DNA from: an uncultured Bacteroidota bacterium | GTDB lineage: Bacteria > Bacteroidota > Ignavibacteria > UBA10030 > UBA6906 | Length of the DNA: 64,000 nucleotides | NCBI GenBank assembly: GCA_963700635.1 | Contig: CAVOYH010000004.1 | Location: forward strand, 192,001 to 256,000 | Direction of reading: 5' to 3' | Part shown: positions 42,256 to 64,000 of the stretch, piece by piece | Layout of the letters: each line of letters begins with the position of its first letter | How positions within the stretch are numbered: the stretch's first letter is position 1 | Made by a program: the position numbers and the translations under genes | The notes under the pieces: model-generated | Database searches by the model: none | The model's input: the letters and a program-made list of their open reading frames with translations, nothing else | What the model was told of the DNA's origin: nothing

Positions 42256-42329
42256 CGTCGTTGTTGGTTTGGGTTCCGATGGAACTGCGGAGGGGGTGTC
42301 CCGGGGAGAATTTCTGCATAAATCCTTCA

Positions 42330-45093: not shown

Positions 45094-45100
45094 CAACTAC

Positions 45101-45721: not shown

Positions 45722-45732
45722 GAGGGATAACC

Positions 45733-45894
45733 ATGAAACTCCTGTGCATCACGATGTCGTTCACACTCCTATTGACAGGATGCTACTCTCCTACGACCAT
45801 AACAAAGGAGAATACCGACAATTTAGACAACGAAGCAGTCACGTTCTATCCCACCGATGGCACATTTATCGAATCAAAGGCTGGTAACCACTGA
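45733..45894 (+). pseudogene. Paralogous lipoprotein truncated by IS3
   Basis: MKLLCITMSFTLLLTGCYS...TDGTFIESKAGNH aligns with upstream gene; stop codon supplied by IS terminal TGA. Confidence 0.8.
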
Positions 45895-45962
45895 CCTGAC
45901 CCCCGAAACTCGGTCCAAGATTTTGTAGACAAAAATGTTATCTTGGACCAGAAGGAGGGCAT

Positions 45963-46241
45963 ATGGGTAAGCAACGGCACACGGCAGAGCAGATTATTGC
46001 AAAGTTGCGAGAGGCGGAGGTCCTCCAGGGCAAAGGGATGTTGCTGGAGGAGGTCCTGCGGCAGATCGGGATCAGCGACGCGACGTACTACAAGTGGCGG
46101 AAAGAGTACGGAGGTTTGCGGGTCGAGCAAGCGAAGCGGCTCAAGGAGCTTGAACACGAGAACAGCCGCTTGAAGAAGGCGGTGGCCGATCTGACGTTAG
46201 ATAACATGATCCTGAAGGAAGTCAGCCGGGGAAAATATTGA
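45963..46241 (+). CDS. IS3 transposase OrfA
   Basis: HTH (ISDATYYKWRKEYGG), leucine zipper LKELEHENSRLKKAVADLTL; slippery G-GGA-AAA at 46229-46235. Confidence 0.93.
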   Translation: MGKQRHTAEQIIAKLREAEVLQGKGMLLEEVLRQIGISDATYYKWRKEYGGLRVEQAKRLKELEHENSRLKKAVADLTLDNMILKEVSRGKY

Positions 46242-47083
46242 GCCCGGCCAAACGGCGCCGGGCAGCAGTTCAGGTTCAGTCAGTACTCCAGGTGTCAGAA
46301 CGACGTGTCTGTCGTGCCATGGACCACCCCAGATCAACGCAGAGACGAAACCCGGTGGTCAAGTCCGATGAGGAGGCTCTGCGAAAGGAAATTGTCAAGA
46401 CGGCATGTGCCTACGGGCGGTATGGGTATCGGAGGGTAACGGCACTGTTGCGGAACGGTGGGTGGAGGGTAAATCATAAGCGGGTTGAGCGGATATGGCG
46501 TCAGGAAGGGCTGAAAGTGCCCAAGCGGCAGCCCAAACGGAGAAGGTTGTGGTTGAATGATGGTTCCTGTATCCGGCTGCGACCCGAGTATCCAAACCAC
46601 GTCTGGAGCTATGATTTTGTGGCTGAGCGGACCACTGACGGAAGACCACTGCGGATGTTGAACATCATGGATGAATACACGCGGGAATGCCTCAGAATCC
46701 ACATTGGACGGCAGGTCAAGGCGACAGATGTAATCTATGAATTATCTGAACTCTTCATCGAACGTGGAGCGCCGGACTACCTTAGGTCAGACAACGGATC
46801 AGAGTTTACGGCAGATCTGATTCGGGAATGGCTCGGGCGGCTCGGTGTCAAGACGCTGTTCATAGAACCGGGGAGCCCGTGGGAAAACGGCTACATCGCG
46901 TCGTTCAACGGCAAGCTCAGAGATGAACTGCTCAACGGTGAGATCTTTGACACGATCCTGGAGGCAAGGGTAATCACGGAGGACTGGAGACAGCTTTACA
47001 ACACAATCAAGCCGCACAGCTCTCTGGGCTATCGTGCACCAGCCCCGGAGGCATACACCCCGCACCAGGTCGCCAATGCCTGA
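46238..47083 (+). CDS. IS3 transposase OrfB (DDE core)
   Basis: YGYRR, WSYDF, SDNGSEF, PGSPWENG, PHSSLGY; usual catalytic Glu in NGYIESF reads Ala (NGYIASF). Confidence 0.92.
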   Translation: MSPAKRRRAAVQVQSVLQVSERRVCRAMDHPRSTQRRNPVVKSDEEALRKEIVKTACAYGRYGYRRVTALLRNGGWRVNHKRVERIWRQEGLKVPKRQPKRRRLWLNDGSCIRLRPEYPNHVWSYDFVAERTTDGRPLRMLNIMDEYTRECLRIHIGRQVKATDVIYELSELFIERGAPDYLRSDNGSEFTADLIREWLGRLGVKTLFIEPGSPWENGYIASFNGKLRDELLNGEIFDTILEARVITEDWRQLYNTIKPHSSLGYRAPAPEAYTPHQVANA

Positions 47084-47135
47084 GACAGGGAAAAAATGAA
47101 CTCAACATTGGTACACGAACCGGGGGCAGGTCACA

Positions 47136-47729
47136 TTGTTGCCTGAACTGAGCATAGGTTGGGGAACTGCATGGTGGTTTGCGGCTGCGTACGCCCTAAT
47201 CACGCTCTCCATTGTTGCGATCTATGGCAGGGAGTTCTCAAAGAGATGTTTCCGCTTCCCCAGATCCAAATCCATCAAGCATAAGATACCTGTTGCCCTC
47301 GGTGCTGCCTTGTTTGGCAGAGCGCTCATGATGTATTCGATCTTCGTGCCTCTCGAACTGAACACCCCATGGTTCTGGACTGGAGTTTCGATGTTTGGCG
47401 CTGGTGCCCTTCTCACCGCCATTGCCATGATCAATTTTGCCACAACTTCCCAGGATCAACTTGTTACAAAGGGCATGTATCGAATTTCGAGAAATCCCAT
47501 ACAGGTGCTGGCTATCATCATGTGGATAGGCGTCGGAATAGCCACAGAATCATGGATCATGTTGGTGGCATGCCTGCTCCTGGCTGTTGTATCATATCCG
47601 TCAATTCGGGCACAGGAACACTCTTGCATTGAAATCTATGGGGATGCCTATCGAGAATACATGAAGTCCACACCACGCTATTTGCCGTTCGGCAAGAACC
47701 TTCAGAGTCAATATACTGGGAGGTCATGA
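47136..47729 (+). CDS. Isoprenylcysteine carboxylmethyltransferase/PEMT-family membrane protein, native start probably removed by IS
   Basis: LVTKGMYRISRNP, YGDAYREYMKSTPRY motifs; frame begins 2 bp after IS right end. Confidence 0.75.
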   Translation: MLPELSIGWGTAWWFAAAYALITLSIVAIYGREFSKRCFRFPRSKSIKHKIPVALGAALFGRALMMYSIFVPLELNTPWFWTGVSMFGAGALLTAIAMINFATTSQDQLVTKGMYRISRNPIQVLAIIMWIGVGIATESWIMLVACLLLAVVSYPSIRAQEHSCIEIYGDAYREYMKSTPRYLPFGKNLQSQYTGRS

Positions 47730-49115
47730 TGAAGATCACCGTTCTGAATGGAAGTCCCAAGGGCGAGTTGAGCATAACACTACAGTATGCGCACTTCCTT
47801 CAGAACAAGTTCCCTCGGCATGAGCTGAAAGTCTTTCACGTCTCACAACATATCAAGAAGCTTGAAAAAGACGAGAAGGCCTTTCGGGAGATCATGGATG
47901 AAGTCAGATCGTCTGATGGTGTCTTGTGGGCGTTTGGTGTCTTTGTGCTTGCTCCACCCTCTCAGTATATGAGGTTCGTTGAGCTGATTTCCGAAAGAGG
48001 CGTGGAAGATGCCTTCAAGGGCAAGTATGCAGCGGTTCTCACTACCTCGATTCACTACTTTGACCACACCGCTCACAATTACATGAGGGCCGTATGTGAG
48101 GCCCTCAACATGAGATATGCGGATGGACTATCTCTGTATTTGCAGGACCTGACGGACAAGAACAGAAGACAAGATCTCATTGCTTTTGCTGAAAACTTCT
48201 TCGAGGCAATCGAGAAGAGGTTCACCACTGCCCGACTTTTCAAGCCACTCACGTTCACCGATTTTGTCTATGAGCCTTCCCCTCCGGAGAAGAAGACCGC
48301 CACGAAGGGCAAGAACGTTGTCGTGCTTACAGACGCGTACGACAGCAATTCGAACCTGGGAAAGATGATCAACAGATTCAAGCAGTCTTTTGTAGTGGAG
48401 ATCGAGGTAATTGACCTTCACGATATCGATATAAGAGGCGGGTGCCTAGGCTGCATGCGATGTGGATACGATTACAAGTGCGTTCAGAAGGACGGGTTTA
48501 CCGACTTCTACAACAATCGAGTAAGGACGGCCGATATCATTGTGTTTGCTGGCGAAGTCAGGGGTCCCTATCTGTCCTCGAAATGGAAGGAATTCTACGA
48601 TCGCGCCTACTTCTGGAACCATACACCATCACTGGTCGGCAAGCAATTGGGATACTTGATCTCAGGGCCTTTGAGCCAAACAGCGAATCTCATCCAGATT
48701 CTGGAAGCCTCTTCTACCATCTCGGCAGGATGCCAATCACGCAGATGTAGTCACCGACGAGTGTGAGAACTCGGCGGAGACTGACGCCTTGTTACAGAGC
48801 TTTGCGGAGCGTCTGGTCAGTTTCGCTGAAAAAGGATACGTTAGACCGCAGAACTTCCTTGGGGTTGGGGGACATAAGGTTTTTAGAGACGATATCTGGG
48901 GAAGGCTTCGCATGATTTGGCAGGCGGATCATGGATACTTCGAGAAGCACGGTAAGTATGATTTTCCCCAAAAAGAGCTCACGTTGTGGATCGCCAATCC
49001 CATCATGATGACATTGACAAAAATCCCCAGGTTCAGAAAGAAGTTCTATGCAAACCTAACCAAATTCTCCAGTGGAAGATTGAAGAAGATCGCTGAGAGA
49101 AAGGATCGAAGTTAG
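47726..49115 (+). CDS. Tandem flavodoxin-fold NAD(P)H-dependent/iron-sulfur flavoprotein; frameshift near 48720
   Basis: VLNGSPKG, second domain with GCLGCMRC...C; alternate frame RQDANHADVVTDECENSAETDALLQSFAE joins ORF 48789. Confidence 0.75.
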
Positions 49116-49347
49116 GTGCCCAGTACTCGTCCAGGGAGAACGCCACATAGCCTTTTTTGGAGACCGACCTCAGCTCGGAGACTCGTGAGATCGGCTCAAT
49201 TTGGCCGTCAGTTGGTGCGGCAAGTGTAGAGTACTTTGGGTCTCCCTCCACTCGGAAACCCGGTTGTAGACGTCCAGAGGTCCAGCATTCTCCAGTCACG
49301 TCCAAAACCTTTCCCCAAGGGAGCGACAGACAGACCCCCACCGCCCG

Positions 49348-49376
49348 TTGACAATTCCGCCCTCACGCCGTAGATT
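49348..49376 (+). promoter_or_regulatory. Sigma70-type promoter
   Basis: TTGACA-N17-TAGATT upstream of 49447 gene. Confidence 0.6.
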
Positions 49377-49446
49377 AGTTCATTCGTCGGGGGGTGTTCA
49401 GCTCGACTATTCCATTGACCAGACACCTGAAACAAGGTAGACATTT

Positions 49447-50943
49447 ATGCAGCCGCTGGCTCTTCATATTCTCCTTGCCATCCTTGTGGTACCATGTTCC
49501 ACTCAACTACGAGCTGCTGAGCAGTGGCGCATCAATTCAACAGAGGAGTGGAAGCAGTCCAGGAGCCAAAGCGACGGGCTTACGTTTGAGGAGGGGTTTG
49601 CGTTGCCCCTCGGAAAGGCCGGCTCTTATCGGAGTGTTATGCGTAGGTTCGATGACAAGACGTCGGCGTCACATATTGTTGTCGAGCAGTCTCCGGTGTG
49701 GCTCAACTGGAATGCTGTTGAGCCCATAGGCCCGACAAACCTGGTGGACGCACCCGTACTGCTGACGCTGGGTCCCGGTGACTATTGGCTCTTTGGACGC
49801 TATGGTCGCAGCACGGGCGATACGACGTTCACGTCCGAGGAAGCCAAACTTGAAGGCTTCGACATCCCGTTACGAACGACCCCTTTCAAGAATCAATTCG
49901 ACGCTGCCGGCGGGCTGAAGCCCGGACTCGGCGGATATCATGCCTGGCAAAGCAAAGATATGGTGCACTGGGTCCACCATGGACCGGTTACTGAAGCATT
50001 TTCACGCTGGGTCACCACTGCCGAGTATGTCGACGGGAAAGCGTATGTCTACTACGACTATCCGAATGACCAGGATCCGCATCTGTATATTGATGAGAAC
50101 CTGACCGATGGTGTACCCGGGAAGAATATGGGGCTGGCATTCGACGATCCCTCTGACGGATCAGATTGTGCCGTCATTCGCGACCTGGAGGGAAGGTTTC
50201 ACGTGATCTACGAAGATTGGAGCCCGATCAATGCCGGAAACCACTCATGGGATTCGCCTCTGGCCGGACATGCCGTCAGCGCGAACGGCATCGACCATTT
50301 CCGAATACTCAAGCCGGCCGTGGACCATCGAACAGAACCGACCGGGAAGTTCGCCGAATATCGCCACCCCCACTGGACACAGCATCCTCACTGGAATTCC
50401 AACATCGCAACATACGAAGTGCACGAACCCGAACAAAACGCGTATGGGGATTGGGCTGCCATCGGCATTGGCGGCCAATACTACCTCTTCGGGGATTTCC
50501 ATGCTGCCGGAAATGGCGGGGAGGAAATGAGTGTTGCCTGGTTCACCTCATCCAGCCTCGACGCACCGTTCGAGTATTGCGGGCAGATCGGGAACGGCCA
50601 TCCTGACCCGGATATTGCCTTCGCCGAGGGACAGTTCTATCTGGTCACCCAGACTGATACAGACTTCGTCAGTCCTGGCCCCTGGGTTCAGAGGGTTGAG
50701 ATCCGGGTAGGCGTTGACAGGAACGGTGATGGGCAGATTGACGTATGGACGAAGTGGCAGGAGGTCAAAGAGAGCTACGCCCCTATCAAGGGGTTCTCGA
50801 AGCAGGTTGAGCGTATTCCGGCATCGATGGAACTCACTGACCTCCCCGCGGGCTTTGGATTCTGTTTCGAGTTTCGCACGACGGACACCACCGGGAATTT
50901 GTCAGCACCGACGCTGGACAGTATCAGCATGTTTTTTGAATAA
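49447..50943 (+). CDS. Secreted protein, putative five-bladed beta-propeller glycoside hydrolase-like
   Basis: Signal peptide; DAPVLL, WQSKDMVHWVHHG, SDCAVIRD, HPDPDI motifs reminiscent of GH43/GH32 clan. Confidence 0.55.
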   Translation: MQPLALHILLAILVVPCSTQLRAAEQWRINSTEEWKQSRSQSDGLTFEEGFALPLGKAGSYRSVMRRFDDKTSASHIVVEQSPVWLNWNAVEPIGPTNLVDAPVLLTLGPGDYWLFGRYGRSTGDTTFTSEEAKLEGFDIPLRTTPFKNQFDAAGGLKPGLGGYHAWQSKDMVHWVHHGPVTEAFSRWVTTAEYVDGKAYVYYDYPNDQDPHLYIDENLTDGVPGKNMGLAFDDPSDGSDCAVIRDLEGRFHVIYEDWSPINAGNHSWDSPLAGHAVSANGIDHFRILKPAVDHRTEPTGKFAEYRHPHWTQHPHWNSNIATYEVHEPEQNAYGDWAAIGIGGQYYLFGDFHAAGNGGEEMSVAWFTSSSLDAPFEYCGQIGNGHPDPDIAFAEGQFYLVTQTDTDFVSPGPWVQRVEIRVGVDRNGDGQIDVWTKWQEVKESYAPIKGFSKQVERIPASMELTDLPAGFGFCFEFRTTDTTGNLSAPTLDSISMFFE

Positions 50944-51136
50944 GGTGCGTTGGAGCGAACGAGGCGATGGAGGGGACGACTTACCGCTCCGCTTCATCGT
51001 GCCAAAGTCTGCTTGCGGACCAGTTCTGGCGGACCCCTCCTGCAGCGTCTCCATCCAACAAGAAGGGAGCTCCGCCTGTGATTTCGCGCGGGTCTCCTGC
51101 GAATCATATTTACGGAGGAGCCTCCAGCGATGCTCC

Positions 51137-51590
51137 GTAACGGTGTGTGGAGCGTGCCCACCCGAGGCTGTCGCAGGCCTGTCGTTCGCTCGTCTGGTAG
51201 GTGCGCTCAACCTCTCGGACGATCTCCCAGCGCACGCCAGGCCTTAGAGCTTTTTTGACAACACATCCTGAAGGATCTGCTTGTCGAGCGTCAAGTCTGT
51301 CACCATGCGTTTCAGGCGACGGTTCTCGTCCTCAAGTTCTTTCAACCGATGGATCTCAGAGACCCCCACGTCCGCAAACTGCTTCTTCCACCGGTAGAAG
51401 GTCTGCTTCGTGATCCCCATCTTCCGGATGATCTCAGCAACCGTTGTACCGTTGACAGCCTGGCGAAGTGCGAGGGCAATCTGTGCTTCCGTGAACCGCT
51501 TTCTCATAGCAAGGTCCTCCTCCATCGGGTGGGCTAGGATACGAAAAAAACTAACACCCGAAATGGACCGCGAAACTGGGTCCAGACCCG
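51137..51590 (-). mobile_element. Partial IS3-family element (orfA 51507-51244 plus start of orfB)
   Basis: MRKRFTEAQI...TFYRWKKQF...DKQILQDVLSKKL, A-AAA-AAG slip site, orfB start ...SERQAC..LGWARSTHRY then lost; ends approximate. Confidence 0.85.
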
Positions 51591-51646
51591 CCCGTTGCGT
51601 GGCATGAATCCGGGTTGTATATTGGACGCATGACACGCGCAGGACA

Positions 51647-52333
51647 GTGCGGAAAAGATCTGGCCTCACGCCAGATCCCCCAGACACGGCTCCGGTGCCC
51701 CTGACCACGATCAGCCGGCGCGAATTGCTCTCGACGATGGCAATCGGCGGCGGAGCAATCGTGTCGGGCGTGGACCAGTTGTCCCACTCCCCGCGCCCCG
51801 CCGTGCCTCCGGGATCAAGGGATCATCCGGTCTTTCCGATCCGGCAACCGGACGTCCTGGCGCAGTCGTTCGGGTTCCATTCCTGGAAGACGCGGGAACC
51901 CGAGATCGCCGAGATCCTCGATGCGCACTCCTCGGTGATCGCCGTGACTTCCGGTCATCTCCACTTGACCGGCATGTCGCTCCATGGGCGAGTCCCGCAG
52001 ATTGTCTTTGCCGGGACGGCATCATACCCCCACGACGTGGGGCTGTTCACCGTCGCGGAGAGCACCGTCACCGTGGAGGCGGTACGGCTTCCTTCTCATC
52101 TCCTTGTGCCGGAAACAAACATCCACGGAATGCAGCGTCACGGGATAGACTTCACCGACCCGGATCACCCTTCGTACACGCACTCTGTGATGGGACACGT
52201 TGAAGAGCGTCGGTTCATCACACGCGTCCGTCGTTGTGACAGCGGTCAGATCGGAGTGTCGAGCCGAGACCGAATCTTATGGTCAGGGTTTCATGCCTCT
52301 CCGATTTCACCTTCACGGTGTCAGACGCAATAG
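51647..52333 (+). pseudogene. Internally deleted Tat-exported metallophosphoesterase
   Basis: Tat-like SRRELL leader joined to C-terminal HPVFP...SGHLH part; DxH, GD and GNH motifs missing. Confidence 0.55.
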
Positions 52334-52417
52334 TCGAATCCTGTTCATTCGTAACGGTTTGACAATGCTCGAGGTTTTCACGAATACTTCATCCAGCAAT
52401 GGAACGAGGAAACGCAT

Positions 52418-54583
52418 ATGAAGCCCTGTGGACTACCAGCAACGGTGCTCGCCTGTGCCGCCGCTCTTCTCTGCGCCCTGCCCGCCCCGGGCAGCAGTCA
52501 GCCGGTACTCAAGGTCATGACCTACAACATCCAGGGAATGCGCCCTGGCAGCGACCCCGAAACACGCCTCTACCACATTATCGAGAATCTCAAGCGCATC
52601 GATCCAGACATTATCGGACTGCAGGAAATCAATGAGACCCTTGGCGGGAACGGCCTCGACAACCAGGCCAGAAGGATCTCTGAAGCGCTGAGCAGTCATT
52701 TCGGGATTCCCTACTTCTGGCATGCGGTGGCAACCCACGAAGCGTGGTGGGGCCAGTTCACGGAATCGATCGGCATCATGACCAAACACAACATTCAGGC
52801 AATGGATGAGAAGAGTCTTGTGAGCACGGACTTCCCTCGCAAAGTCTACTATAATCTCATTGATACTCCCCTTGGCGCGGTGCATTTCTTCACCACCCAT
52901 CTCTCTGCCAACGAACCGACCATTGGCGCCCGGCAGGGTGCCCAGGTGAAGGCATTTGTGACGGAGAAGGAGATCGGCTCGGGCGCCATCGCATCAATCG
53001 TCACCGGAGATTTTAACGGCATCCCAACGTCTGATGTGGTGCGGTTGTTCGTGGCGGGAACCGACGATTCCTGCTACATCGATACTTTCGCCGAGACCAA
53101 TCCCACTCTCCCAGGGTACACCGCCCCTGCCGGCGCCGCTGACGCACGCATCGACTACGTTCTTCTCAAGCGAACCGGGCGCCTGATGCCCGTGACGTCG
53201 ATCGTGGAATGCGATCTCCCGTATGCAACAGACGCCTACTGCTCCGACCATTACGCCGTCGTGAGCACGTTTTCTACACCTCGGCTCGGGTATCCCCGTT
53301 CCTTGATGCACAATCCCACTCTCGTCGGACGTTCCGACACTGTGGACCTTCAACTCACAAGCCTCTCGCTCGAGCCGGTGACTGTTCTCAGCGTGATCCC
53401 GCAGACGGGCGAGTTTGAGGTGCTGCCCGGCCCGGCATTGCCGGTAACGCTCACGACGCGCGGCGCATCCGTGACCCTCCGGATCGTCTTCTCGCCCACG
53501 CGCGAAGGGGAGATCACCGATACAATCACGGTCACCACCGATGACCCTCATTGGCCGACGGCAAGGATCCCCCTTGGCGGCATCGCCGTGGGCACACTCA
53601 CGCCTGCAGCTCTCGGGCCGTGTTACACGATCTCTAGAGGCCCCGGTGGAGATCTTCTCGGGAAACTTGATCTGGTCACCGCAGTGCCGTCGACGATCGG
53701 ATCCATGGGTTTTGCCGGAATGACAGGACTTGCCGTATGTCCGACGACGGGGGATCTTTATGCGGTGAGGCCAGACTCGCCCCAGAGCACGCTTGTCCTG
53801 GTCAATGCTCAGACCGGCGCTGCCGTGTCAGGAGGGAAGCTACCGATCGCCTCATTGCGCACCATCGCGTTCGGCCTGGGTGACACGCTCTATGGCGGGA
53901 CAACGACAGGTCGTCTCGTGCGTGTCGATCTCCGCCAACGGAGCGTCTCCGACATCATGAATTTTAATGGGATGGGCTTCGGAGGGATCTGCTATGACGC
54001 CCGGCAGGGAAAGATCCTCGCAAGTACATACGTGCCTCCCTTTACCAATGACAGTCTCTATGCCATCGATCCCCGCAACGGGGCCTCGACACTAGTCGGC
54101 TCGACCGGCTTGTGGATTGTGACTTCGTCGCTCACACTTGACACAACGGGAGCGCTCTACGGCTTAACCGGCACAGCTGCCAACCTTCTGGTACGTATCG
54201 ACAAGTCCTCAGGTCTCGGTGAACCTGTGAACACCGATGCGCTCGAGCACTATGCTGCTCTCGCGATCAGACCAAAGCCACGCGGAACCACATCTGTTGA
54301 CCCGGGGCCCACCGCCCCGATCCGGTCGGGGCTTCTCGGCAACTATCCCAACCCGTTTAATGGAGGCACGCGCATCATCTTCAGGACCATGCGCGAGGAC
54401 CGTGTGGTGCTCGAAGTGTTCAACATCCTGGGGGAACTCGTTGGGACGCTCGTTGATGATATCCGTGCAGCCGGAATCTATCAGATGGATTTCCGCGATC
54501 CGACGCTCGCCGGTGGTGTCTATGTATGTCGTCTGCGCACCGGCTCCCTCTCACAGGCAGGGAGAATGCTGTATCTCAAGTAG
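52418..54583 (+). CDS. Secreted EEP (endonuclease/exonuclease/phosphatase) protein with Ig-like, propeller-like and T9SS CTD domains
   Basis: VMTYNI, DIIGLQEI, TTHL, GDFNG, RIDYV, SDH; NYPNPFN...MLYLK. Confidence 0.88.
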   Translation: MKPCGLPATVLACAAALLCALPAPGSSQPVLKVMTYNIQGMRPGSDPETRLYHIIENLKRIDPDIIGLQEINETLGGNGLDNQARRISEALSSHFGIPYFWHAVATHEAWWGQFTESIGIMTKHNIQAMDEKSLVSTDFPRKVYYNLIDTPLGAVHFFTTHLSANEPTIGARQGAQVKAFVTEKEIGSGAIASIVTGDFNGIPTSDVVRLFVAGTDDSCYIDTFAETNPTLPGYTAPAGAADARIDYVLLKRTGRLMPVTSIVECDLPYATDAYCSDHYAVVSTFSTPRLGYPRSLMHNPTLVGRSDTVDLQLTSLSLEPVTVLSVIPQTGEFEVLPGPALPVTLTTRGASVTLRIVFSPTREGEITDTITVTTDDPHWPTARIPLGGIAVGTLTPAALGPCYTISRGPGGDLLGKLDLVTAVPSTIGSMGFAGMTGLAVCPTTGDLYAVRPDSPQSTLVLVNAQTGAAVSGGKLPIASLRTIAFGLGDTLYGGTTTGRLVRVDLRQRSVSDIMNFNGMGFGGICYDARQGKILASTYVPPFTNDSLYAIDPRNGASTLVGSTGLWIVTSSLTLDTTGALYGLTGTAANLLVRIDKSSGLGEPVNTDALEHYAALAIRPKPRGTTSVDPGPTAPIRSGLLGNYPNPFNGGTRIIFRTMREDRVVLEVFNILGELVGTLVDDIRAAGIYQMDFRDPTLAGGVYVCRLRTGSLSQAGRMLYLK

Positions 54584-54748: not shown

Positions 54749-56641
54749 TCACCAGGTCTGGGTCACCACCACGCGCAGCACAGATTCATGGAATGCATCG
54801 ACTACATCGGCATACTTGCTCCACTCACCGTACACTTCCACCGTCCCGCCGGTCCACACCGGCAGAAGCGAGCGGAGATAGAGCCCCGAACGCATGACCG
54901 CGTCCCGAGAGAGAGAAACACCTGCGGTCGTCTGCCAGTTACGCGGCGTGGAATACGTTGCGGAGAGATCCCAGGTGACGATGGACGAGAGCGATGAGCC
55001 GATCCCGGTGTTCAGAAGTCCCGCCGCCAGATTGAGCGACAACGGGATCACAAACCCGACACTCTGGAAGAACATCGCATTGCGCGAGATGTACCGGCCG
55101 CCCGGAAGCTGGGTCTTTCCTTCATGATAATTGATGGAGAACATCGTGGACGACATGAGCCCTCCAGCCGTCCGGAACGTGTACCCCGCAGTACCGCTGA
55201 CTGCGAGGATGTCACTTGTGATGTTCAGGCTGTCCGCCAGGATGCGGCTCACCTGCGACAACGGAGCATAACTGATCCGGAGGTACGGCAGGTTCCGGAA
55301 ATTCAAAGAGAGCTGAGCACCAAAGGCATCGACCGTGGTTCGGTATGCCTTCGTATCCGAAAGGTTGTCCTCGTCCCTCCTGTAGAACGCTCCCACCGAT
55401 AGTTGGCGTTGTACAAAAGATTGTTCTGCTTTCCCCTCAACGCGCATATTGTCCTTGCGCAGATACGGAACACCGAGAGACGCATAGCCCGCGCCAACGC
55501 GTTTGAAATTCGCCGAGATGGATGTACCACTCTCCGGGAACCTGTACCTGCCGTCGAAGCTGAGGGCCATGTCAGCAACACTGGTGAGGTTGGCATCCGT
55601 TACCGATCCGAGCCACGAGGGGATGTCGGATTCAGCAGGCCCTGCCGCCTGAATATCGGCTGTCAGGACCGAGTACGCCACCTCGCCTCCGATGTCGAGG
55701 CGATCATTGAACAGGAACAAACGGCCATCGATACCAATGACAGCGTTCTTTTGCGGCGCCACAGGACGGTGAAGGGAATCACGAGTAAGTGACCCGGCAT
55801 CATCCGCTCCGTACACTGCATTGATGAACAGATGCGTGTCGTCCCTTGCCCCGATGCCGACCCGCCCAGCTGCAAGGGTTCGCCGGTACGCGGCATTCTC
55901 GAACACAGAGGTCCACGACTGTGAAGCTCCCACGGCCGATTGAACCTGTCCTCCGGCAACAGCAAGATAGAACATGCCGGGTGTGAATTCGAGCTGTAGT
56001 CCCGTCAGAGTGGTTCCGTCCAGCGTCAGACGGGAATATGACGGGTACGTCACGCCGAGGACAATGGTCGGAAAGAGGGAAGCGAAACTCTGCGTTGCCG
56101 ATGCGAGACCCATCGCCTGCAACTCATCCATCCGCGCCTGCAGATCGGTTTCCTTCAGGTCCCGCAGTTCCTGGAGCTTCGTCAGCAGTGCTTCCGGATC
56201 CTCCCCTCCGGTCACCGAACTCCCGAGCGACCGAAGCGAGTCCTTCGCTGCCTCCGGCGTAAGTCCGGCAAGACGGTCCTGAAGCGATGAGAGATCCTGA
56301 ATACGCCCATCGATGCGTCGTCGGATCTGATCCTGGAGGTCGCTCCTGCTGAGTCCGACGCTGAAGGCGTTGATGTGCTGGAGACTGCTGCCCTCCTCCG
56401 TTGTCGCCAGTGCCTGGATCGAGAGCGGAAGACCGTACACATTCAGGACAGAGCTGAGGTCCCATCGAAGAAATGCCGGCGGCAGCTGCTGTCCGAAACC
56501 CTGACGGTTTGCGGTCTGCCAGGTCAGATGACTGACGCCGTTGAACTGCACGGGATCGGCGTTCTGCGCATACCCCGGTGCCGCCAGCCCGAGGAGGCAA
56601 CAGAGGGCGAAGAACGACGGGACACACAGTGACCGGCTCAT
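54749..56641 (-). CDS. Putative outer-membrane beta-barrel with helical insertion
   Basis: GAGGA RBS, signal peptide (GYA|Q), amphipathic strands, terminal Trp (VLRVVVTQTW). Confidence 0.72.
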   Translation of the reverse strand: MSRSLCVPSFFALCCLLGLAAPGYAQNADPVQFNGVSHLTWQTANRQGFGQQLPPAFLRWDLSSVLNVYGLPLSIQALATTEEGSSLQHINAFSVGLSRSDLQDQIRRRIDGRIQDLSSLQDRLAGLTPEAAKDSLRSLGSSVTGGEDPEALLTKLQELRDLKETDLQARMDELQAMGLASATQSFASLFPTIVLGVTYPSYSRLTLDGTTLTGLQLEFTPGMFYLAVAGGQVQSAVGASQSWTSVFENAAYRRTLAAGRVGIGARDDTHLFINAVYGADDAGSLTRDSLHRPVAPQKNAVIGIDGRLFLFNDRLDIGGEVAYSVLTADIQAAGPAESDIPSWLGSVTDANLTSVADMALSFDGRYRFPESGTSISANFKRVGAGYASLGVPYLRKDNMRVEGKAEQSFVQRQLSVGAFYRRDEDNLSDTKAYRTTVDAFGAQLSLNFRNLPYLRISYAPLSQVSRILADSLNITSDILAVSGTAGYTFRTAGGLMSSTMFSINYHEGKTQLPGGRYISRNAMFFQSVGFVIPLSLNLAAGLLNTGIGSSLSSIVTWDLSATYSTPRNWQTTAGVSLSRDAVMRSGLYLRSLLPVWTGGTVEVYGEWSKYADVVDAFHESVLRVVVTQTW

Positions 56642-56651
56642 GCGATCCTCG

Positions 56652-59600
56652 TTAGAGTTCGATAGCATCGGCGTACACCAGGCGGGGCACAGTCTCGCCT
56701 GCAGCATCATGGTGCACTTCGAATTCGCGGACAATGATGCGGTATTGTTTGCTCCCTTGCGCCACCGGTTCACTCAGTGTGATCTCTTTCACCCAGCGCA
56801 TCTTCGTCTCATGTAATTCCGTGGGAACCATACGGTCTGCCGCATCAGGTTCATCGGCCGACCCGGGGATCATGGTACCGGAAACCGGAATCCATGTCAG
56901 GTCCCCCTCCCCGACCTTCTTCTCAAGTGTGGCAGTGAGGTACATACTCCTATTCAGCGCGGCAAGGGGCTTGACCTCACCCGGATACCGGCTGGCATAG
57001 ACACCGGCGACCTGCACGGTGATCTTCTTGTCCGTGTTGAAGGTCACCGCAGCAACCCGGTCGGGCACCACCTGGATAAAATCCGTCAGCACGGCGTGCG
57101 ATAGATGTGCATTCACGATGGAATTCGGCTGGAAGCGGACGAGCGCGAGACGGACGAATGGGAAGTATGCCTGACCCGGATCGAGGACCACGTCCGCGAA
57201 CCAGAGGTTGCGCTCCTTGTCGAACACCGGTTTGTATCCGGCAACATGCAGCGGGACCCCTGCTCCGATATTCGCCGTACCAACGGCCAGCGGAAGCTCC
57301 TCCAGTGTCACATCCACCTGCTTTCGTTCCGTGTTCTTAAAATCCGCCAGTGTTGGCGCAGCCTTAATTGCCCCACCCGACTTGACGATGGGATCGAGGC
57401 CCCACTGTGTCACAAACGGCCGCAGCCGGTTATCGTCCGGATCGTTCTCATCAAGGGGTTTGCCGCCCGGACGGATGACAATACCCAGGAGCTCGCCGTC
57501 GCCCGAGGAGAACCATGGCCGCTCCAGGAACACTCGAATACCGCCCCCGCATCGCCTGCTGATGATTGTCCGGGCATCCTCTTTCCGTTCCCACTGGAAG
57601 GTCGGCACACAATACTTCACCTTCGGTGCATGCGGACGTGCCGAATTCAGAACTGCTGCTTCGACGGACTGCTCACGGGTGAACGGGACCGGGGGTTTCA
57701 CCTTCTTCATGTCGCCCGCTGTCGGAAGCAGATCCAGAAAACATTCGCGGAACCGCGAGACCGCCACAACTGTGTATCTCACCTTCCTGTATTTTGTATC
57801 GCCAAAATCATGTCGTTGCTCTGCATGCGTGCTGGTAACGAGGCTCACCGGGCCCTGAAGTTCAGGAGCGGGTGTCGCGGTTACCGACGGCTGCGCACCA
57901 GGGAGGGTCAGCGCCATGTTCACCTGACCGCCGGCTTCCTTTCCCGGCGACTGGACCGCAACCTTCTGGTCACCGATCAACACCGACTTGTCAGTCTCCT
58001 TCACCGGCAGGGAGAAGGCCTGCCCCTTTCCATCCACCGTGGTCCACTCGGGCATGGTGATATCGTCGAACGGTTCGCTCCATTCGGCGCGGAGGTCGAA
58101 CCGGTCCGTGCTCCGGCCGTGCACCCCGATCTTTCCGTGGATCATCGCGAACGTCGCACCATAGGTTTTGACCGGGATCAGTTTCTCAACGGATGGTTCA
58201 AGGAGTGGTTGCTGGACAGCATGCACGATGATCATCTCGCGGTATGGCGTGATCATCCAGTGCTGCCCCTTTTTCGCCTCCTCTTTCACCTTGGCCGAAG
58301 CGGCGGTGGATTTGTCCGCAACCCAGCTGGCGATGCCGAGCACGTTTGCTCCGGCATCATCCACATACGAACTGTACCGCACGGTCACCACACCGGCTTT
58401 CGGGACCTTCACGATCACCAGTGTATCCCCGCCCTTTTCTACTGTCACAGCATCTGTGTGCTCCTCGATACGGATCCGGAAGGAGCGCACATCCGGCCAT
58501 CCCGTGCCGCCAGGAAGCAGATCAAGGTACTCAACCGTACCGACCGGGAGACCGTTCCAGGAGAACGACAATGCGACGCCACGTGCGAGCGGATCGGGAA
58601 GATATGGCACCGTTACACTGTCCCCTGGATAGATCTTTGCAGGAAATCCTTCGTGTGAGACGATCAACGCGTAGGCGTCGGCGGCGGAAAGTCCGTCGAA
58701 CCTGCCGTGGTACTCTGCCATCTGCTGACTGCATCGGGGGGCGAGGAGATGGCGCTCCGGCGTCGGGTCGTCCAGATCGTGGGCCTTGAGATACGCAGCA
58801 ACCGTCGCATCATAGTTGCTCCGGAGAATGACACGCTCCACGGACTCACCGGGTTTGACAGGTGTGCGCAACACCACGGCCGGTGAGGCCACTGGTTCGA
58901 GCCGGAGATATGTCGTCTCGCGCGTTGCAATGGACACATCATTCACGGAAAGCTCTGCCAGATCTCTCCCGTTCCCGGCGAGGTCAGCGATGCGCGCGCG
59001 CAAACGGTACTTCCGTCCGAACCGAAGCCGCGGCAGGGTCCCGGTCTCTGCTTCCGTGGTTGCGGACAATTTTGTGAACGTCACAGCCGGATTATCATTG
59101 TTCTCCACTTCGTCGAGGTCCGAGACCCGCTTGCCGGGTCGCGGCGCCACAAGACTCCACCCATCCCACCGGCAGATGTTCTCGCTCAGCCGCATTTCAT
59201 CGGGACTCCCGGCATCCGTTTCACCTTCCGCAGGCGGGGGGGAGGTGAGTGCGATGCTCACATACCCCTCCGTTGTTTCAGCATGAGACAGACCGGGCTT
59301 CCCGCCGAAAGACACGGCAGTCTTTCGCTTGCAGAGCGAATGCCATTTCCCTGTTGCGTCGGACCAGGCGTCCACTCTGTATCCCCGCACCAGATCCTCA
59401 GCGTACAGGCGCACCGCTGCCTTGTCCGCTTCCAATGTTGGCGGCGACGGGTTCTTCAGGACAGCAGGGTGAACCTGGGCATATGAAAGGTTGACGTTGT
59501 AGGCCGCCTGGGCGTCAATGCGGGTCAGTACTTCCGCGCTGTGATCCCGGCGGACGAGGGCGATCCCCTGGGTACGAAGCGACGGCAGTGAGATGAAGGG

Positions 59601-60893
59601 AAGCATCGGAACAGCGGTTGCCTTGATCAGGCCGTTGATCTTTTCAATCCCGGCGGCCGACGCGAGCATCACGGGCTCCGGCAGCGTCTCATCCCACGAT
59701 CCCTGTTCGATCGTTCCCATGAGCGCCTTGAGCTTCATCGCAGCACCGTCCACATCAAGCTGGACGACATCGAATTTTGTTGGATCGCTCAGATCGAAAA
59801 CACCGTCCTTGATCGCACTCACCCCCGCACGGGGTGCCGCACGAAAGTCACCCGTGGTGAGGGTGTATTTCGTTTTCGCTGAGAAATTCAGGCTGGCACT
59901 GTCCGTGAACACACTCTTCCAGTTCGCCTTTACCGCTACGAATGAGGATGCGGGGATGCCTGCCATGGCCGGAATGGTGATATCGATGACAAGGCCGAGT
60001 TTGCGCATCAGGTCGGGATAATCTCCGAGGGAAGAAACCGCCTCATGGAACTCGACTTCGGGCAGCTTGGGAAACACCTTTCCGGGTTGCACCGGTTTCA
60101 CGGGGTCCATCGGTGTGTGGAACAGGCTGAACGCCATGAAATTCTTCATTACGTTCTGACCATTCGTCAGGATACGCCGTGAAGCGGCCAGATCCTTCAA
60201 AATGCTCTGGAGGCCGGCAGCGGCACCTGATTTTAATCGCATCCCCGGTCCCTTTACCAGCTGCTCCATGCTCCGCTGCATGCGGGCCCGGACAGGTGCA
60301 CTCATCATGTTCAGGGATGGTTGGACCGTCTGGAGGGATCTGAGATCGAGGCCCGGGGACACTGCGCCGGGGGTCTTGACGGTCGCCGTGCTGCTCATGA
60401 ACTCATAGAGAGAGACATCTTCAAATGCCTTGAGCACCTCCTGCACCGGAGGATAGCTGCCAGGCCAGCCGGCAGCGATCGTCGCGTACTTCTCCTTGAT
60501 GAATTCTTCGATCTCTTTCACCGGATAGGAGAGGATCGGCACCTTTCCGAGCGATTCGATCGCATAGGGTTTCACGGGAGAAGAAGGTGTGAACATTGCC
60601 TGCCAGTATGCGGGGTCAAGCGAGACATTCCAGAGCTTGGGATCGTCAAACGGTACGGTAGGACCATTCTCGAATTCCACGGACAAACGCAGGACATCGC
60701 GCACATGTTCCGTCCAGGCCAGGAGTTTGCTAAAATCATTCAGGGTCTTCATGACGACGGGCCCGGTCGGGTCGGCGTCCGGCGAGATCTCATCCGTACT
60801 CAAACGGAATGAGATGAACACTGAGAGTTTAAGCGCACCTCCGGTCGCCTTGCCGTTCGGGAGAGCCGTCCAGAGTAATGTTTGCGTGTTCAT
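56652..60893 (-). CDS. Large hypothetical protein (1413 aa) with FN3/Ig-like segments
   Basis: Long ORF, tight spacing to neighbours; YRLRARIADLAGN and VRYTVVAVSRF resemble FN3 strands; no signal peptide. Confidence 0.8.
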   Translation of the reverse strand: MNTQTLLWTALPNGKATGGALKLSVFISFRLSTDEISPDADPTGPVVMKTLNDFSKLLAWTEHVRDVLRLSVEFENGPTVPFDDPKLWNVSLDPAYWQAMFTPSSPVKPYAIESLGKVPILSYPVKEIEEFIKEKYATIAAGWPGSYPPVQEVLKAFEDVSLYEFMSSTATVKTPGAVSPGLDLRSLQTVQPSLNMMSAPVRARMQRSMEQLVKGPGMRLKSGAAAGLQSILKDLAASRRILTNGQNVMKNFMAFSLFHTPMDPVKPVQPGKVFPKLPEVEFHEAVSSLGDYPDLMRKLGLVIDITIPAMAGIPASSFVAVKANWKSVFTDSASLNFSAKTKYTLTTGDFRAAPRAGVSAIKDGVFDLSDPTKFDVVQLDVDGAAMKLKALMGTIEQGSWDETLPEPVMLASAAGIEKINGLIKATAVPMLPFISLPSLRTQGIALVRRDHSAEVLTRIDAQAAYNVNLSYAQVHPAVLKNPSPPTLEADKAAVRLYAEDLVRGYRVDAWSDATGKWHSLCKRKTAVSFGGKPGLSHAETTEGYVSIALTSPPPAEGETDAGSPDEMRLSENICRWDGWSLVAPRPGKRVSDLDEVENNDNPAVTFTKLSATTEAETGTLPRLRFGRKYRLRARIADLAGNGRDLAELSVNDVSIATRETTYLRLEPVASPAVVLRTPVKPGESVERVILRSNYDATVAAYLKAHDLDDPTPERHLLAPRCSQQMAEYHGRFDGLSAADAYALIVSHEGFPAKIYPGDSVTVPYLPDPLARGVALSFSWNGLPVGTVEYLDLLPGGTGWPDVRSFRIRIEEHTDAVTVEKGGDTLVIVKVPKAGVVTVRYSSYVDDAGANVLGIASWVADKSTAASAKVKEEAKKGQHWMITPYREMIIVHAVQQPLLEPSVEKLIPVKTYGATFAMIHGKIGVHGRSTDRFDLRAEWSEPFDDITMPEWTTVDGKGQAFSLPVKETDKSVLIGDQKVAVQSPGKEAGGQVNMALTLPGAQPSVTATPAPELQGPVSLVTSTHAEQRHDFGDTKYRKVRYTVVAVSRFRECFLDLLPTAGDMKKVKPPVPFTREQSVEAAVLNSARPHAPKVKYCVPTFQWERKEDARTIISRRCGGGIRVFLERPWFSSGDGELLGIVIRPGGKPLDENDPDDNRLRPFVTQWGLDPIVKSGGAIKAAPTLADFKNTERKQVDVTLEELPLAVGTANIGAGVPLHVAGYKPVFDKERNLWFADVVLDPGQAYFPFVRLALVRFQPNSIVNAHLSHAVLTDFIQVVPDRVAAVTFNTDKKITVQVAGVYASRYPGEVKPLAALNRSMYLTATLEKKVGEGDLTWIPVSGTMIPGSADEPDAADRMVPTELHETKMRWVKEITLSEPVAQGSKQYRIIVREFEVHHDAAGETVPRLVYADAIEL

Positions 60894-60910
60894 ATCAGGT
60901 CCCCGAATGA

Positions 60911-63900
60911 TTATTCCACCGCGAATGCGGCACGGTACCGCCCGTACTCATCCGCATTCGTCGTGTCCTTGAACAGTGGGTCGCCGGCCGATCCCTTGAA
61001 TTGTCGCGACGTAGACATCGACACTGATTTGCTGAAGAAGGCGATCTCGATCTTCACCTTTACCGTCGCCTTCCCCTCCATCTTTCCGTTCGACGTATAA
61101 CTCAGACCCAGATAGAACTCCACGGAGAGCGTGATCAATCCGAGGATCGCCAGCGCCCCGCCCAGGCGGACGTACGCCTCATAGTTCGTCGTGTCGGAGG
61201 ACTTCATGTAATAGAAGCCGCCCATCACCACCACCCCACCCTTTGCCACACCGAGGTTGATTGCAATGGCTCCGCCAAACTCCAGGGATGCCTCGAGCAC
61301 TTCCACTCCCCGCGGGGAGATGGAGATGCCGAAGAAACCACCCCCGCCAAACAGTGAGACGGTGAGAAGGAATGGGTTCTCCCGGGAACAGAAATCAAAT
61401 CCGACATTCAACGGATTCCCGTTGAAGGGGATTCCCAGTCTGGCACCAAGAGAGATATTCTGCAGACTGAAGGCGCCGACAGCGATCGTGGGAACGGAAA
61501 GTGAATACCCGGCGGTCACCCCCGACGTATTCACCTCGAGGAACGGAGGATCACTGAATCCTTTGGTGTCAACCACTGTCAGGATCTGGTTTACGAAGGA
61601 GAGTGCGCCAATAAAGCGGAGGTCTTTGATGTCGACGTCCACATCGACCTTGTTTCCGGGTTTGATAGTAAAGACCGCGCGGTTGAATTCGATCGCCATA
61701 AACTCCTGGATCTTCGGCAACAGGCGGAGCTCAAAATTCTTGAGTTCGCTCCGGACCGTCGCCACCGGGGCCGAACCGTTCATCGGCATTCGCAGCTCCA
61801 CGGTCACGGAAAGCCCGCCGGCGGGATCCTTCGGGACGAATACCCCGTCAAAGACCGCATCCGAAGAACCTGACGGCGCGACGTTCTTCTTCAGGCGGGG
61901 AGTCCAGGTCAGCGTCGTCCGCATGTATTCCGGACACGTTTCCGTCACCATGCGTGGCATGCGCCCCGCTTCGGCGGCGATATCCGGGATCGTGGCGATC
62001 AACGTGTACAGCGGAATCCCGCCGAGGATCTTGGCGTCAGAGAGCGCAGACTTGAAGTAGTCCACGGGGTCGAAGATGCCTGTCGCGAGCGATGCCACAC
62101 TTCCGCCAAAGGCGCCGACCTTTCGCGACATTCCGGTGATGCCCAGCGAAGGAGTCACGAGACCGCCTGACTTCTTCGAGTCTGCAGCGAAGTTGATCGG
62201 CAGTTCTTTCTTAAGCGAGACGAACACTTCGCCCTTGTTCTTGTTCCCGTCGAAGCCGTTCTGGATGTACGCCGGATCAAGCACGATGGTCTGTGCTGCA
62301 GCGGCGCCCAGAAGCTGTTCGGCCGGCGAGATATGCACGGAGGCTTCTTCTACCGTTGGATAGAAGGGTGGATCGTTGGTGGACTGGAGTGCGGACATCC
62401 CGTTGATGTTCACTTCACCGCCGAACTGAAGCATCTCCGTTTCGAACGATGTGTCGCCGGGCGTGACCGGGTCTGCGAAGGCAACACGCTGGCCGCCGAG
62501 TGAGCTCTTGCGCCTCTCCTTCCACTTCATGTAGTCGGAGAGTGCAGCAGCGGCCGTTGAGCCGTCGAATGTGACACCCCGATCCAGAAACAGGATCGGC
62601 GCCGTGAACTCCGAGGGTCTCCCTTCCCAGTCCTCACCGATGCAGTGGAAACCGAACGGTGTGCCGCCCACGACAGGCCAGAATGCCGATTGCCCCTTAT
62701 TCGCGACATCAGAGTCTTCAGGCTTGTCGAGATTCGGCGTGATGAGCGTCGTGATGCGGATCCGGCGATACGGCATCCGGCGTGCTTCCGATCCGGCGGG
62801 CATCGCGTTCTGGCCCGCGCCGGGATAAATTTTGTCACGTTCCTTGAGGATGATATACATGCGCTGGCGGAGGTACGCCACCGGAACAGGCTTTCCACCG
62901 AGGCCGAGTTTCTTGAGATGAAACTTGCGTTCGGTGATCTTGATAAGGGACGCCTTGTGACCGAACGGGAACAGGAACCCGGCGTACACGACACGGACAA
63001 AATGGTCGCGCCCCAGTGTTGCACGGTGGCGCCAGTGCTCAACCGACAGGCCGGGTGGGACGGGCCATTCCCAGTCGCCGACGACATTCATCCATCCGCC
63101 GAGCCCCGAGAGCATCAGGAGCTCTGCATTCATCGGCACGGGATCATAGCCGCTGTTGTGGAACCCGGCCGTAAGGTGCACGATTTCATGCCGGTCCTGC
63201 CGGTCGAGAGATGTGCGGTAGGGAACCATCGGCAGATGACCCGGACCCTGATCGGACTTCTCCTTGTAGTGCGGGGACCAGAGCGCCCGCAACGTTCTGA
63301 GCTGCGGTGGACCATCAGAGGAATTTCCCTGTGCATCACGGATCCCCAGACGCGTGTGCCACAATTCCACACGCCCATCGGACAGGGATGGTTCTGTTTG
63401 ATGCATCCAGGCTGCACGATCGTTGGGGGACATAAATAGCGCCGACGGCAATTCCAGAGCGGTATCGGTTTCACCAGGAGGGTTCGGCTTGAGCATCTGT
63501 CCCAGAAGTCCCGGAGGAATCGCTGGCGCAACGGGTGCAAGAACACCGGTCAGTTCAACATTCGCAAGGAGTTTCTGAAGTGAGGCGGCATGGAGGGTCG
63601 CGAGTTCGGGATCGGTATCAGCTTCGTGGGCAGCGGCATTCCGGAGGGTCTCGATGCGTTTGAACACCCATCGATCAGATTGGCCCGCGCGCACAGAGAC
63701 TTCCAGCACCTTGATATTGTCATCCAGTGCCTTGAATGCACCTTGCGTGGCGTTTTTCCGCGCCGGGGCCGCTCCGGGTGTGATGTCGCGCAACGCATCG
63801 AGCGCAACACCTGCGGCCTGACGCGCCCCGGATACGCCGCTCCGGAGTGCGGCTCTATTCTGAAGCATTGTAACATACGATTGCTGTTTCTTTGACAACA

Positions 63901-64000
63901 CAGAAGCAGGGCCCGTGACATTCAGCGGCAGGGTCCGGCACGCTTCGAGGAGCCCTTTCAGCGTGTATTCGATCGGCGCAGCATTGTTGGGCACCTTGAA
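60911..64000 (-). CDS. Large hypothetical protein (over 1029 aa, 5' end beyond window) with beta-hairpin-rich C-terminus
   Basis: Frame open to window edge (FKVPNN...); C-terminal third is Gly-rich alternating hydrophobic strands. Confidence 0.8.
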   Translation of the reverse strand, partial: FKVPNNAAPIEYTLKGLLEACRTLPLNVTGPASVLSKKQQSYVTMLQNRAALRSGVSGARQAAGVALDALRDITPGAAPARKNATQGAFKALDDNIKVLEVSVRAGQSDRWVFKRIETLRNAAAHEADTDPELATLHAASLQKLLANVELTGVLAPVAPAIPPGLLGQMLKPNPPGETDTALELPSALFMSPNDRAAWMHQTEPSLSDGRVELWHTRLGIRDAQGNSSDGPPQLRTLRALWSPHYKEKSDQGPGHLPMVPYRTSLDRQDRHEIVHLTAGFHNSGYDPVPMNAELLMLSGLGGWMNVVGDWEWPVPPGLSVEHWRHRATLGRDHFVRVVYAGFLFPFGHKASLIKITERKFHLKKLGLGGKPVPVAYLRQRMYIILKERDKIYPGAGQNAMPAGSEARRMPYRRIRITTLITPNLDKPEDSDVANKGQSAFWPVVGGTPFGFHCIGEDWEGRPSEFTAPILFLDRGVTFDGSTAAAALSDYMKWKERRKSSLGGQRVAFADPVTPGDTSFETEMLQFGGEVNINGMSALQSTNDPPFYPTVEEASVHISPAEQLLGAAAAQTIVLDPAYIQNGFDGNKNKGEVFVSLKKELPINFAADSKKSGGLVTPSLGITGMSRKVGAFGGSVASLATGIFDPVDYFKSALSDAKILGGIPLYTLIATIPDIAAEAGRMPRMVTETCPEYMRTTLTWTPRLKKNVAPSGSSDAVFDGVFVPKDPAGGLSVTVELRMPMNGSAPVATVRSELKNFELRLLPKIQEFMAIEFNRAVFTIKPGNKVDVDVDIKDLRFIGALSFVNQILTVVDTKGFSDPPFLEVNTSGVTAGYSLSVPTIAVGAFSLQNISLGARLGIPFNGNPLNVGFDFCSRENPFLLTVSLFGGGGFFGISISPRGVEVLEASLEFGGAIAINLGVAKGGVVVMGGFYYMKSSDTTNYEAYVRLGGALAILGLITLSVEFYLGLSYTSNGKMEGKATVKVKIEIAFFSKSVSMSTSRQFKGSAGDPLFKDTTNADEYGRYRAAFAVE

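Follow-up and report, generated by a model that had tools for sequence, protein, structure and literature searches.

Several described protein families resemble parts of the locus reported here. TANFOR proteins (TIGR02542) have been described as polymorphic toxins (Jana, Salomon and Bosis 2020, PMC7073777), and export through the type 9 secretion system (T9SS) was proposed for them in that article, whose text names no barrel neighbour and whose supplements list TANFOR neighbours that may include a barrel. AsmA-like or repeating-beta-groove (RBG) bridges such as TamB, YhdP and YdbH form a beta-taco with a hydrophobic inner face and are accompanied in some hosts by an operonic barrel (PMC11126948). 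Large beta-meanders also characterize DUF6603 (PF20248). In TULIP-fold proteins of toxin clusters (OrfX/P47) and in MTP-type lipid carriers, a sheet curled round a helix encloses a lipophilic space. We analysed a stretch of 64,000 nucleotides from an uncultured Bacteroidota bacterium of the lineage UBA6906 (contig CAVOYH010000004.1, hereafter the window, equal to G000:C4:192001-256000), in which two adjacent genes, A and B, encode giant beta-rich proteins and are flanked by two smaller genes, C and Z. The conserved unit of this locus is A-B, two genes and not three, and no described family or system fitted the pair in the tests made here, familiar as the building blocks are (beta-taco, fibronectin type III (FN3) domains, barrel).

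In a preliminary description of the window, made from its letters alone, three minus-strand genes separated by 17 and 10 bases had been read as an operon lacking any recognisable enzyme motif. The open reading frame (ORF) list confirmed gene A at 60911..64000 (minus strand, open at the window edge, 1,029 residues seen), gene B at 56652..60893 (minus strand, 1,413 residues, without a signal peptide) and gene C at 54749..56641 (minus strand, 630 residues counted from ATG, with a signal peptide), with the expected gaps of 17 bases between A and B and 10 bases between B and C. Family searches found no enzyme family for A, B or C. The Gly-rich hairpins at the end of A, the FN3-like strands of the leaderless B and the signal peptide and terminal Trp of C were likewise as described. 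Retrieval of the upstream DNA showed that gene A is longer, about 1,560 residues, starting near window-extended position 65585 (about G000:C4:257585; window-extended positions run past 64000), its close homolog P0125 having 1,557 residues. It also revealed gene Z, 21 bases upstream of A and beyond the window (window-extended 65607-66530, or G000:C4:257607-258530), which encodes 307 residues with a signal peptide and two beta-sandwich domains. The part of A outside the window comprises a twin-arginine leader, an optional beta-rich N-domain of about 400 residues and the start of the core.

Relatives of both giants are so numerous that A and B are not chance ORFs: 6,370 relatives of A were found at E<=0.001 among representatives of 50%-identity clusters, and 1,598 relatives of B among 7,994 candidates scored. 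A genome scan with the B alignment, in which 587 of the best 600 stretches were confirmed, yielded at least 80 loci, and a metagenome scan with A yielded 77, both sets consisting of best-scoring rather than random matches. Gene A lay directly upstream of B in 69 of the 80 genome loci, the contigs of the other 11 ending inside B. Likewise, B lay directly downstream of A in 69 of the 77 metagenome loci, the remaining eight having at most 118 nucleotides after A. The two genes were thus adjacent wherever the DNA sufficed, in 69/69 genome loci and 69/69 metagenome loci.

The suggestion that similar giant pairs occur in diverse phyla was confirmed, since A and B are adjacent in at least 10 phyla, including ones without an outer membrane. 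Hosts of the loci belong to Armatimonadota, Bacillota, Bacteroidota, Actinomycetota, Acidobacteriota, Chloroflexota, Pseudomonadota, Geobacter, Verrucomicrobiota, Myxococcota and Gemmatimonadota. Monoderms among them are Amycolatopsis, Nonomuraea and Streptomyces (Actinomycetota), Paenibacillus, Symbiobacteriaceae, and Dehalococcoidia/Dehalococcoidales. The distribution is patchy (2/61 relatives, 10/301 genomes of the phylum and 7/301 genomes of an actinomycete class), which fits an accessory, mobile system. In the neighbourhoods of the loci no gene held a fixed position beside the pair, except C/Z and the tube genes treated below, and no conserved immunity, cargo, lipid-storage or metabolic gene recurred there. 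The multi-protein machine first proposed therefore stands as far as it concerns two probably exported proteins that co-occur across phyla. It does not stand as a three-gene unit, because only 9 of 157 loci have C or Z beside the pair.

Searches against Pfam, NCBIfam, PHROGs and PADLOC gave no significant match for A, B, C or Z, and no sequence match to A, B or C was found in PDB; in particular, no match to extracellular contractile injection system (eCIS), type 6 secretion system (T6SS) or phage-tail families was obtained, and the anti-phage defence models of PADLOC matched 0/6 proteins. In the Atlas, B lay near unnamed clusters and a PG-binding cluster at 0.76. A gave weak leads only, DUF6603 being among its nearest named clusters (0.77-0.78). 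Membership of A in DUF6603, as had been suggested, was rejected, as there was no Pfam match and the C-terminal profile of A reached E=16 against one DUF6603 protein, itself split. The models of A (AlphaFold, for the 1,029 residues inside the window; pLDDT 81.8, pTM 0.68) and B had no full-length fold match in whole-model Foldseek searches, in which all TM-scores by query were <=0.14. Weak Foldseek matches of A to LPD-3 and MTP (E 2.7e-3 and 5e-4, TM <=0.1) were obtained; of these, LPD-3, an RBG protein, reached no more than TM 0.10, the whole-model searches being filled by halves of barrels. The Foldseek matches of A to the TULIP-fold proteins OrfX1-OrfX3, and that to MTP, were weak as well: the TM-scores were 0.06-0.10, sequence searches gave no match, and the pair has no toxin gene next to it. 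The UniRef automatic name 'Outer membrane channel' on one A homolog was discarded, no basis for it having been found. The literature searched contained no description of the A-B pair, most subscription journals being outside its scope and an unnamed family being unsearchable by name.

The C-terminal cup of A (60923..61645, minus strand) is a predicted 12-strand meander ending in W/YxxYxxAFA. In fold searches with the whole model, residues 811-1009 matched halves of outer-membrane barrels only (Z about 12), such as CymA (Z 12.2, root-mean-square deviation (rmsd) 6.7, 192 residues aligned) and a SusC-type protein (Z 11.8, rmsd 2.9, 171 aligned). The faces of the strands were analysed from the alignment and secondary structure rather than from model coordinates. 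Strands 820-1000 have hydrophobic faces with Kyte-Doolittle (KD) values of 1.5-4.1 and mostly polar reverse faces, and the hairpins of the cup carry five hydrophobic turns along one edge and polar turns along the other. The faces of strands 290-385 are mixed (KD of the better face -0.8 to 1.7), and these strands are not amphipathic. The hydrophobic groove suspected earlier is thus found at the end of A, but it is discontinuous, because these middle strands lack a hydrophobic face.

Covariation was calculated from about 390 sequences (about 240 effective) with a threshold of 3.5 standard deviations, and as a positive control the top covarying pairs recovered the hairpins of the model. Between non-adjacent strands, 25 of 1,573 hydrophobic-face pairs (1.6%) were coupled, compared to 9 of 1,516 polar pairs, 16 of 3,090 mixed pairs and 6 of 1,848 pairs in a distant hydrophobic control, so that coupling through the hydrophobic face occurred at about three times the rate of other pairs. 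Helix 798-810 had 8/9 of its links to the hydrophobic face, spread over several strands. Since non-adjacent strands and this helix couple through that face, the model plus covariation place it inward, and the sheet, in contrast to that of a porin, probably wraps around a hydrophobic interior; this holds for the soluble state only. For that state, a transmembrane barrel or pore with an outward hydrophobic face is not supported, as covariation puts the face inside, beneath helix 798-810.

Next to the cup, 94 of 257 A homologs have an insert, amphipathic and helical, whose length is about 110, 230 or 420 residues (one, two or four bundle units). Its site, which covaries with hairpin tip 913 of the cup, lies at 61925..61951 (minus strand) in the window copy, from which the insert is absent. 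The insert exceeded its own shuffles in amphipathicity in five of six cases tested, and its match to ApoLp-III was weak and below the cut-off. A conserved middle domain (62111..63478, minus strand) holds invariant His, Arg, Trp and Asp residues, and a variable helical insertion site (63551..63961, minus strand) is the place where lectin-like propeller repeats sit in locus L010. Such repeats are found on both A and B of L010, whose copies are leaderless. Cohesin, Big_2 and transthyretin-like domains are added to A in some homologs, and one A has a glycoside-hydrolase-like tail.

The fold of B was modelled on a Nonomuraea homolog of 1,200 residues that is 34% identical to the window copy (pLDDT 87.1). 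The last 425 residues of this homolog matched tandem FN3 domains (tenascin, Z 9.4, rmsd 14.1, 262 aligned) as well as single FN3 domains (Z about 8, rmsd about 3); this evidence comes mainly from the C-terminal part, the N-terminal half being barely covered. In the window, the tandem FN3-like domains correspond to about 56655-58211 (minus strand) and are preceded by beta-sandwich domains with helical inserts. A lectin propeller ends B in P0099 and P0102, and the same repeats occur in P0096. Because such lectin propellers, together with the cohesin, Big_2 and transthyretin-like additions, are carried by A or B, an outward-facing role is favoured for the pair. An alpha-2-macroglobulin or complement-like identity of B was dismissed, since no thioester motif (CxEQ) occurs at any of its six cysteines and Foldseek TM-scores were about 0.1. 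Inter-chain mutual information between A and B (110 pairs) was at noise, with 13 of 1.04 million pairs above z 6, and is uninformative either way.

Inspection of the first gene for an export leader revealed one of the twin-arginine translocation (Tat) type, out of frame in this assembly, where a one-base frameshift near 65511 splits the start codon of A from the twin-arginine motif. Of 121 A proteins whose start is intact, 56 were assigned a Tat-like leader by a simple rule (S/T-R-R-x-hydrophobic motif), among them forms with and forms without the N-domain of about 400 residues. Close homologs start A about 24 residues ahead of the twin-arginine motif, and many of the leaders, read by eye, have no clear cleavage site. 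An LNLxxLR-like motif, placed ahead of the twin-arginine motif, was seen in 30 of 37 leader-bearing long forms and in 6 of 10 leaderless long forms; its persistence would be hard to explain if the leader were cleaved. B never has a leader, the single case flagged among 122 being an artefact of an over-long ORF call. A leader on one partner alone usually signals that a folded complex is co-exported through Tat. As the leader motif is on A only and TatC is encoded in this genome, we propose that B hitch-hikes through Tat.

The reading that we prefer, tentatively and at somewhat less than an even chance, is that A and B form an exported complex that attaches to glycans on surfaces and extracts lipid from foreign membranes. 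The folds and the inward greasy face are given by the model plus covariation, whereas the binding of A to B, the export and the handling of lipid are steps that we infer. According to this proposal, the two products would be folded together and exported as a single complex, the leaderless B probably riding through Tat bound to A, and leaderless copies might reach the outside by lysis or by another route. The fibronectin-like arm of B would grip surface sugars, and the cup of A would dock on a foreign membrane, with its rim entering, and draw lipid in. The optional helical bundle by the mouth of the cup may add lipid capacity. In Bacteroidota-type hosts, the barrel C together with Z would pass the complex through the outer membrane or anchor it there, Z possibly corresponding, as a separate protein, to the tag that forms the N-terminus of TANFOR-like giants. 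The lipid could come from membranes of prey, competitors or dead cells, and the purpose may be feeding or damage. If this is true, bacteria could feed on or harm other cells in a new way, by secreting a lipid cup mounted on an FN3 arm. The pair is among the larger unnamed families, with thousands of 50%-identity clusters and giants never seen apart, and it occurs in the cultured genera Amycolatopsis, Nonomuraea, Paenibacillus, Geobacter and Bradyrhizobium, which are open to knock-out.

Several points weigh against lipid uptake by an exported pair. The half-barrel likeness of the cup is equally expected of a pore-forming sheet, the covariation is based on about 240 effective sequences and a threshold of 3.5 standard deviations, and the lipid cup with its cavity is a prediction. 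Sixty-five of the 121 A proteins have no leader by the rule applied, so that export is unsupported for over half of them, and cysteine pairs do not covary and thus give no disulfide support for an outside location. Furthermore, the A copy in this genome and the B copy in the closest relative may be inactive. In that relative (G001), A is intact and B has an early stop and a frameshift; the lesions in A of this genome and in B of G001 are the sole uncompensated intragenic gaps in a 14.3 kb alignment of both. A or B is also broken into several frames in L006, L021, L050, L055, L064 and L077, so it is not unusual for an assembly to show the pair broken.

The membrane-inserting effector raised in the preliminary description was kept as a live rival, which we nonetheless regard as unlikely. 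In this alternative, A-B would be a two-component membrane-attack toxin, in which B binds the target and the hairpins of A flip out and oligomerise into a pore or deliver cargo. The long amphipathic hairpins with hydrophobic tips and the likeness to half-porins (CymA, SusC-type) are what such a toxin would show, and the patchy distribution, the lectin fusions and the fusion of Hcp to A in two actinomycete genomes point the same way. So does the finding that Z-C also adjoins TANFOR-like giants, TANFOR proteins having been described as polymorphic toxins (PMC7073777), and once a protein with a weak SpvB-type N-terminal match. However, no conserved immunity or cargo gene lies beside the pair, and the C-terminus of A is not polymorphic, given that tails longer than 40 residues were found in 0/128 locus A proteins and that a single long enzyme-like tail (P0314) occurs among 257 database homologs. 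Covariation also places the greasy face inside, under the helix, although this arrangement may be that of a pre-pore.

TANFOR-like giants also offer a parallel in gene layout, as their set of tag, beta-meander giant, FN3 chain and barrel resembles Z-A-B-C. Unlike TANFOR toxins, A uses Tat instead of Sec and lacks a variable C-terminal toxin, the downstream gene is always B and never an immunity gene, and the pair ranges far outside Bacteroidota. No homology of A and B to a TANFOR-like giant or to its FN3 partner was detectable (hhalign probability 0.8 and 1.6), so that a kinship of A with these giants was rejected, and A itself has no TANFOR match.

The resemblance lies in C and Z. C is predicted from its sequence to be an outer-membrane beta-barrel, with 26 amphipathic 9-mers, two of them in a helical insert (56096-56350), and a terminal Trp in 10/10 aligned homologs; it has no sequence match in Pfam, NCBIfam or PDB. 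The six of the nine C/Z-flanked loci that have a named host are all Bacteroidota-type; the present host is treated as such too, in view of its T9SS-type tail motifs and of the TANFOR-type loci in the sample of its phylum. Ten genomes of the phylum have A: in seven of them C is adjacent, and in the other three the 20 kb examined contain no C and no Z. C-like barrels occur in 46/301 genomes. From the best matches to C in other genomes, 19 regions were picked, and in 17 of them a Z domain lies close to the C match; in these regions Z is most often the N-terminus of a giant of 1,500-3,000 residues, frequently beside an FN3 chain of about 700 residues. Z aligns to the two N-terminal domains of these giants at 99.9% probability. 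Z-matching giants reached E 1e-6 to 1e-8 against TIGR02542, under the cut-off, two of them lying within 12 kb of a C-like gene, and in the Z family 1/10 members matched TIGR02542 weakly (E=0.053). Z is fused to a C-like barrel in L199:6924-9788, L200:9768-12905 and L202:8302-11139. The preliminary description had called the barrel dedicated; C is not dedicated to A-B, because C-like barrels also accompany TANFOR-like giants, and three Bacteroidota-phylum genomes have A-B without C or Z. As C/Z adjoin other giants to which A and B are not detectably homologous, Z-C is a shared module to which A-B has been joined.

After the Z-C fusion of L202 come a small Z-like gene and a protein of 1,666 residues with a weak SpvB-type N-terminal match. 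A parallel operon of a Z-domain giant (1,500-2,000 residues) and a C-like barrel was seen in L206, L207, L208, L209, L212, L222 and L224, most of which also have a signal-bearing FN3 chain of about 700 residues; L224 has no scored C match. L206 comes from the genus of the present genome, which has A-B instead. This genome contains a second, distant Z-like gene (L211:8635-12855, in G000:C3), accompanied by a FecR-domain gene and a barrel-like gene of 804 residues, a weak paralogous Z-barrel locus.

A broader claim would make A-B a cross-phylum machine for membrane attack or lipid harvesting with exchangeable exits (Tat, Z-C and Hcp/gp19 tubes), and Z-C a secretion system, with the TANFOR-like domain as tag and C as pore, that exports TANFOR toxins instead of T9SS; we consider it doubtful. 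A barrel fused to or adjoining a TANFOR-like domain would be a specific alternative to the proposed T9SS exit of these toxins.

A bridge for lipid transfer within the cell's own envelope, resembling AsmA/TamB, had also been suggested. Here an uncleaved Tat anchor would fix A in the inner membrane, B would be the scaffold and C the dock at the outer membrane, and the many leaders without a clear cleavage site, the long beta-meander ending in a hydrophobic groove, the operonic barrel as in TamA-TamB and the weak Foldseek matches to LPD-3 and MTP could be read in this way. The periplasmic bridge fits poorly, however, and we judge it improbable. The pair is present in monoderms, which have no two membranes to span, the groove is discontinuous at strands 290-385 and occupies only the last third of A, Pfam and NCBIfam gave no match to Chorein-N or AsmA, and AsmA-like bridges do not share the obligate FN3 partner. 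The patchy distribution, with the pair in only 2/61 relatives, and the lectin tips, which suggest an external target, do not fit either.

Less probable again is that A-B serves as base, cap or cargo of a tail-tube-like filament built from orphan Hcp/gp19 proteins. The association of tube genes with the pair is a recurring and unexplained link: of 140 loci with flanking DNA, 10 have a gp19 or Hcp gene beside the pair (one on the opposite strand; L141 included), and in two actinomycete genomes an Hcp gene is followed by an Hcp-A fusion (L064:5778-9978 and L232:1510-5968). Hcp matches were found solely at the A-B locus in two actinomycete genomes; in the L064 genome, the Hcp gene and the fusion are the sole Hcp matches. 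In L007 a signal peptide is present on the tube protein and a Tat leader on A. The resemblance to eCIS, T6SS or phage tails ends there, since a tube gene is missing from 130/140 loci, the other ten include five that look like one clade, no PHROG match was obtained, matches to viral folds had TM-scores of about 0.1, and a scan of 68 proteins from the 80 genome loci, a subset of the neighbours, found no sheath, baseplate or spike. By search, gp19 was absent from the present genome; the same family search gave matches in other genomes. Tandem two-domain gp19 tubes (L128:558-1487, L007:13841-14821, L228 and L229) form a family of at least 366 proteins, one of which has a signal peptide. A tandem tube dedicated to A-B was rejected, as this tube also occurs in two genomes without an A match.

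The least probable alternative, a cytoplasmic lipid-handling complex (lipid-body or membrane-remodelling scaffold) to which export was added later in some lineages, would agree with the 65/121 leaderless A proteins, with the leaderless state of all B and with helical bundles of the apolipoprotein-like kind that coats lipid bodies, but lectin propellers occur on the leaderless L010 proteins, domains such as FN3 chains, cohesin and Big_2 typically work outside the cell, and no lipid-storage or metabolic gene recurs nearby.

In the surroundings of the operon, a tRNA-Ser (40610-40695) is followed by a truncated integrase-like ORF (40803-41384; read by eye, without a Pfam match), and an IS3-type element (45963-47083) is present along with transposase remnants (regions 40610-47083 and 51244-51708). 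From its sequence, this tRNA-Ser/integrase-like/IS3 stretch is possibly the edge of an island. A promoter scan was at chance level, with 4 found compared to 4.0 expected. Proteins with T9SS tails, for example a WD40 protein, a phosphodiesterase and an epimerase-like protein, are encoded around the operon (39759-54583 and upstream of Z), and none of these neighbours recurs with A-B beyond the nearest relative. In the host genome as a whole, 74 ORFs bear a T9SS-type tail motif.

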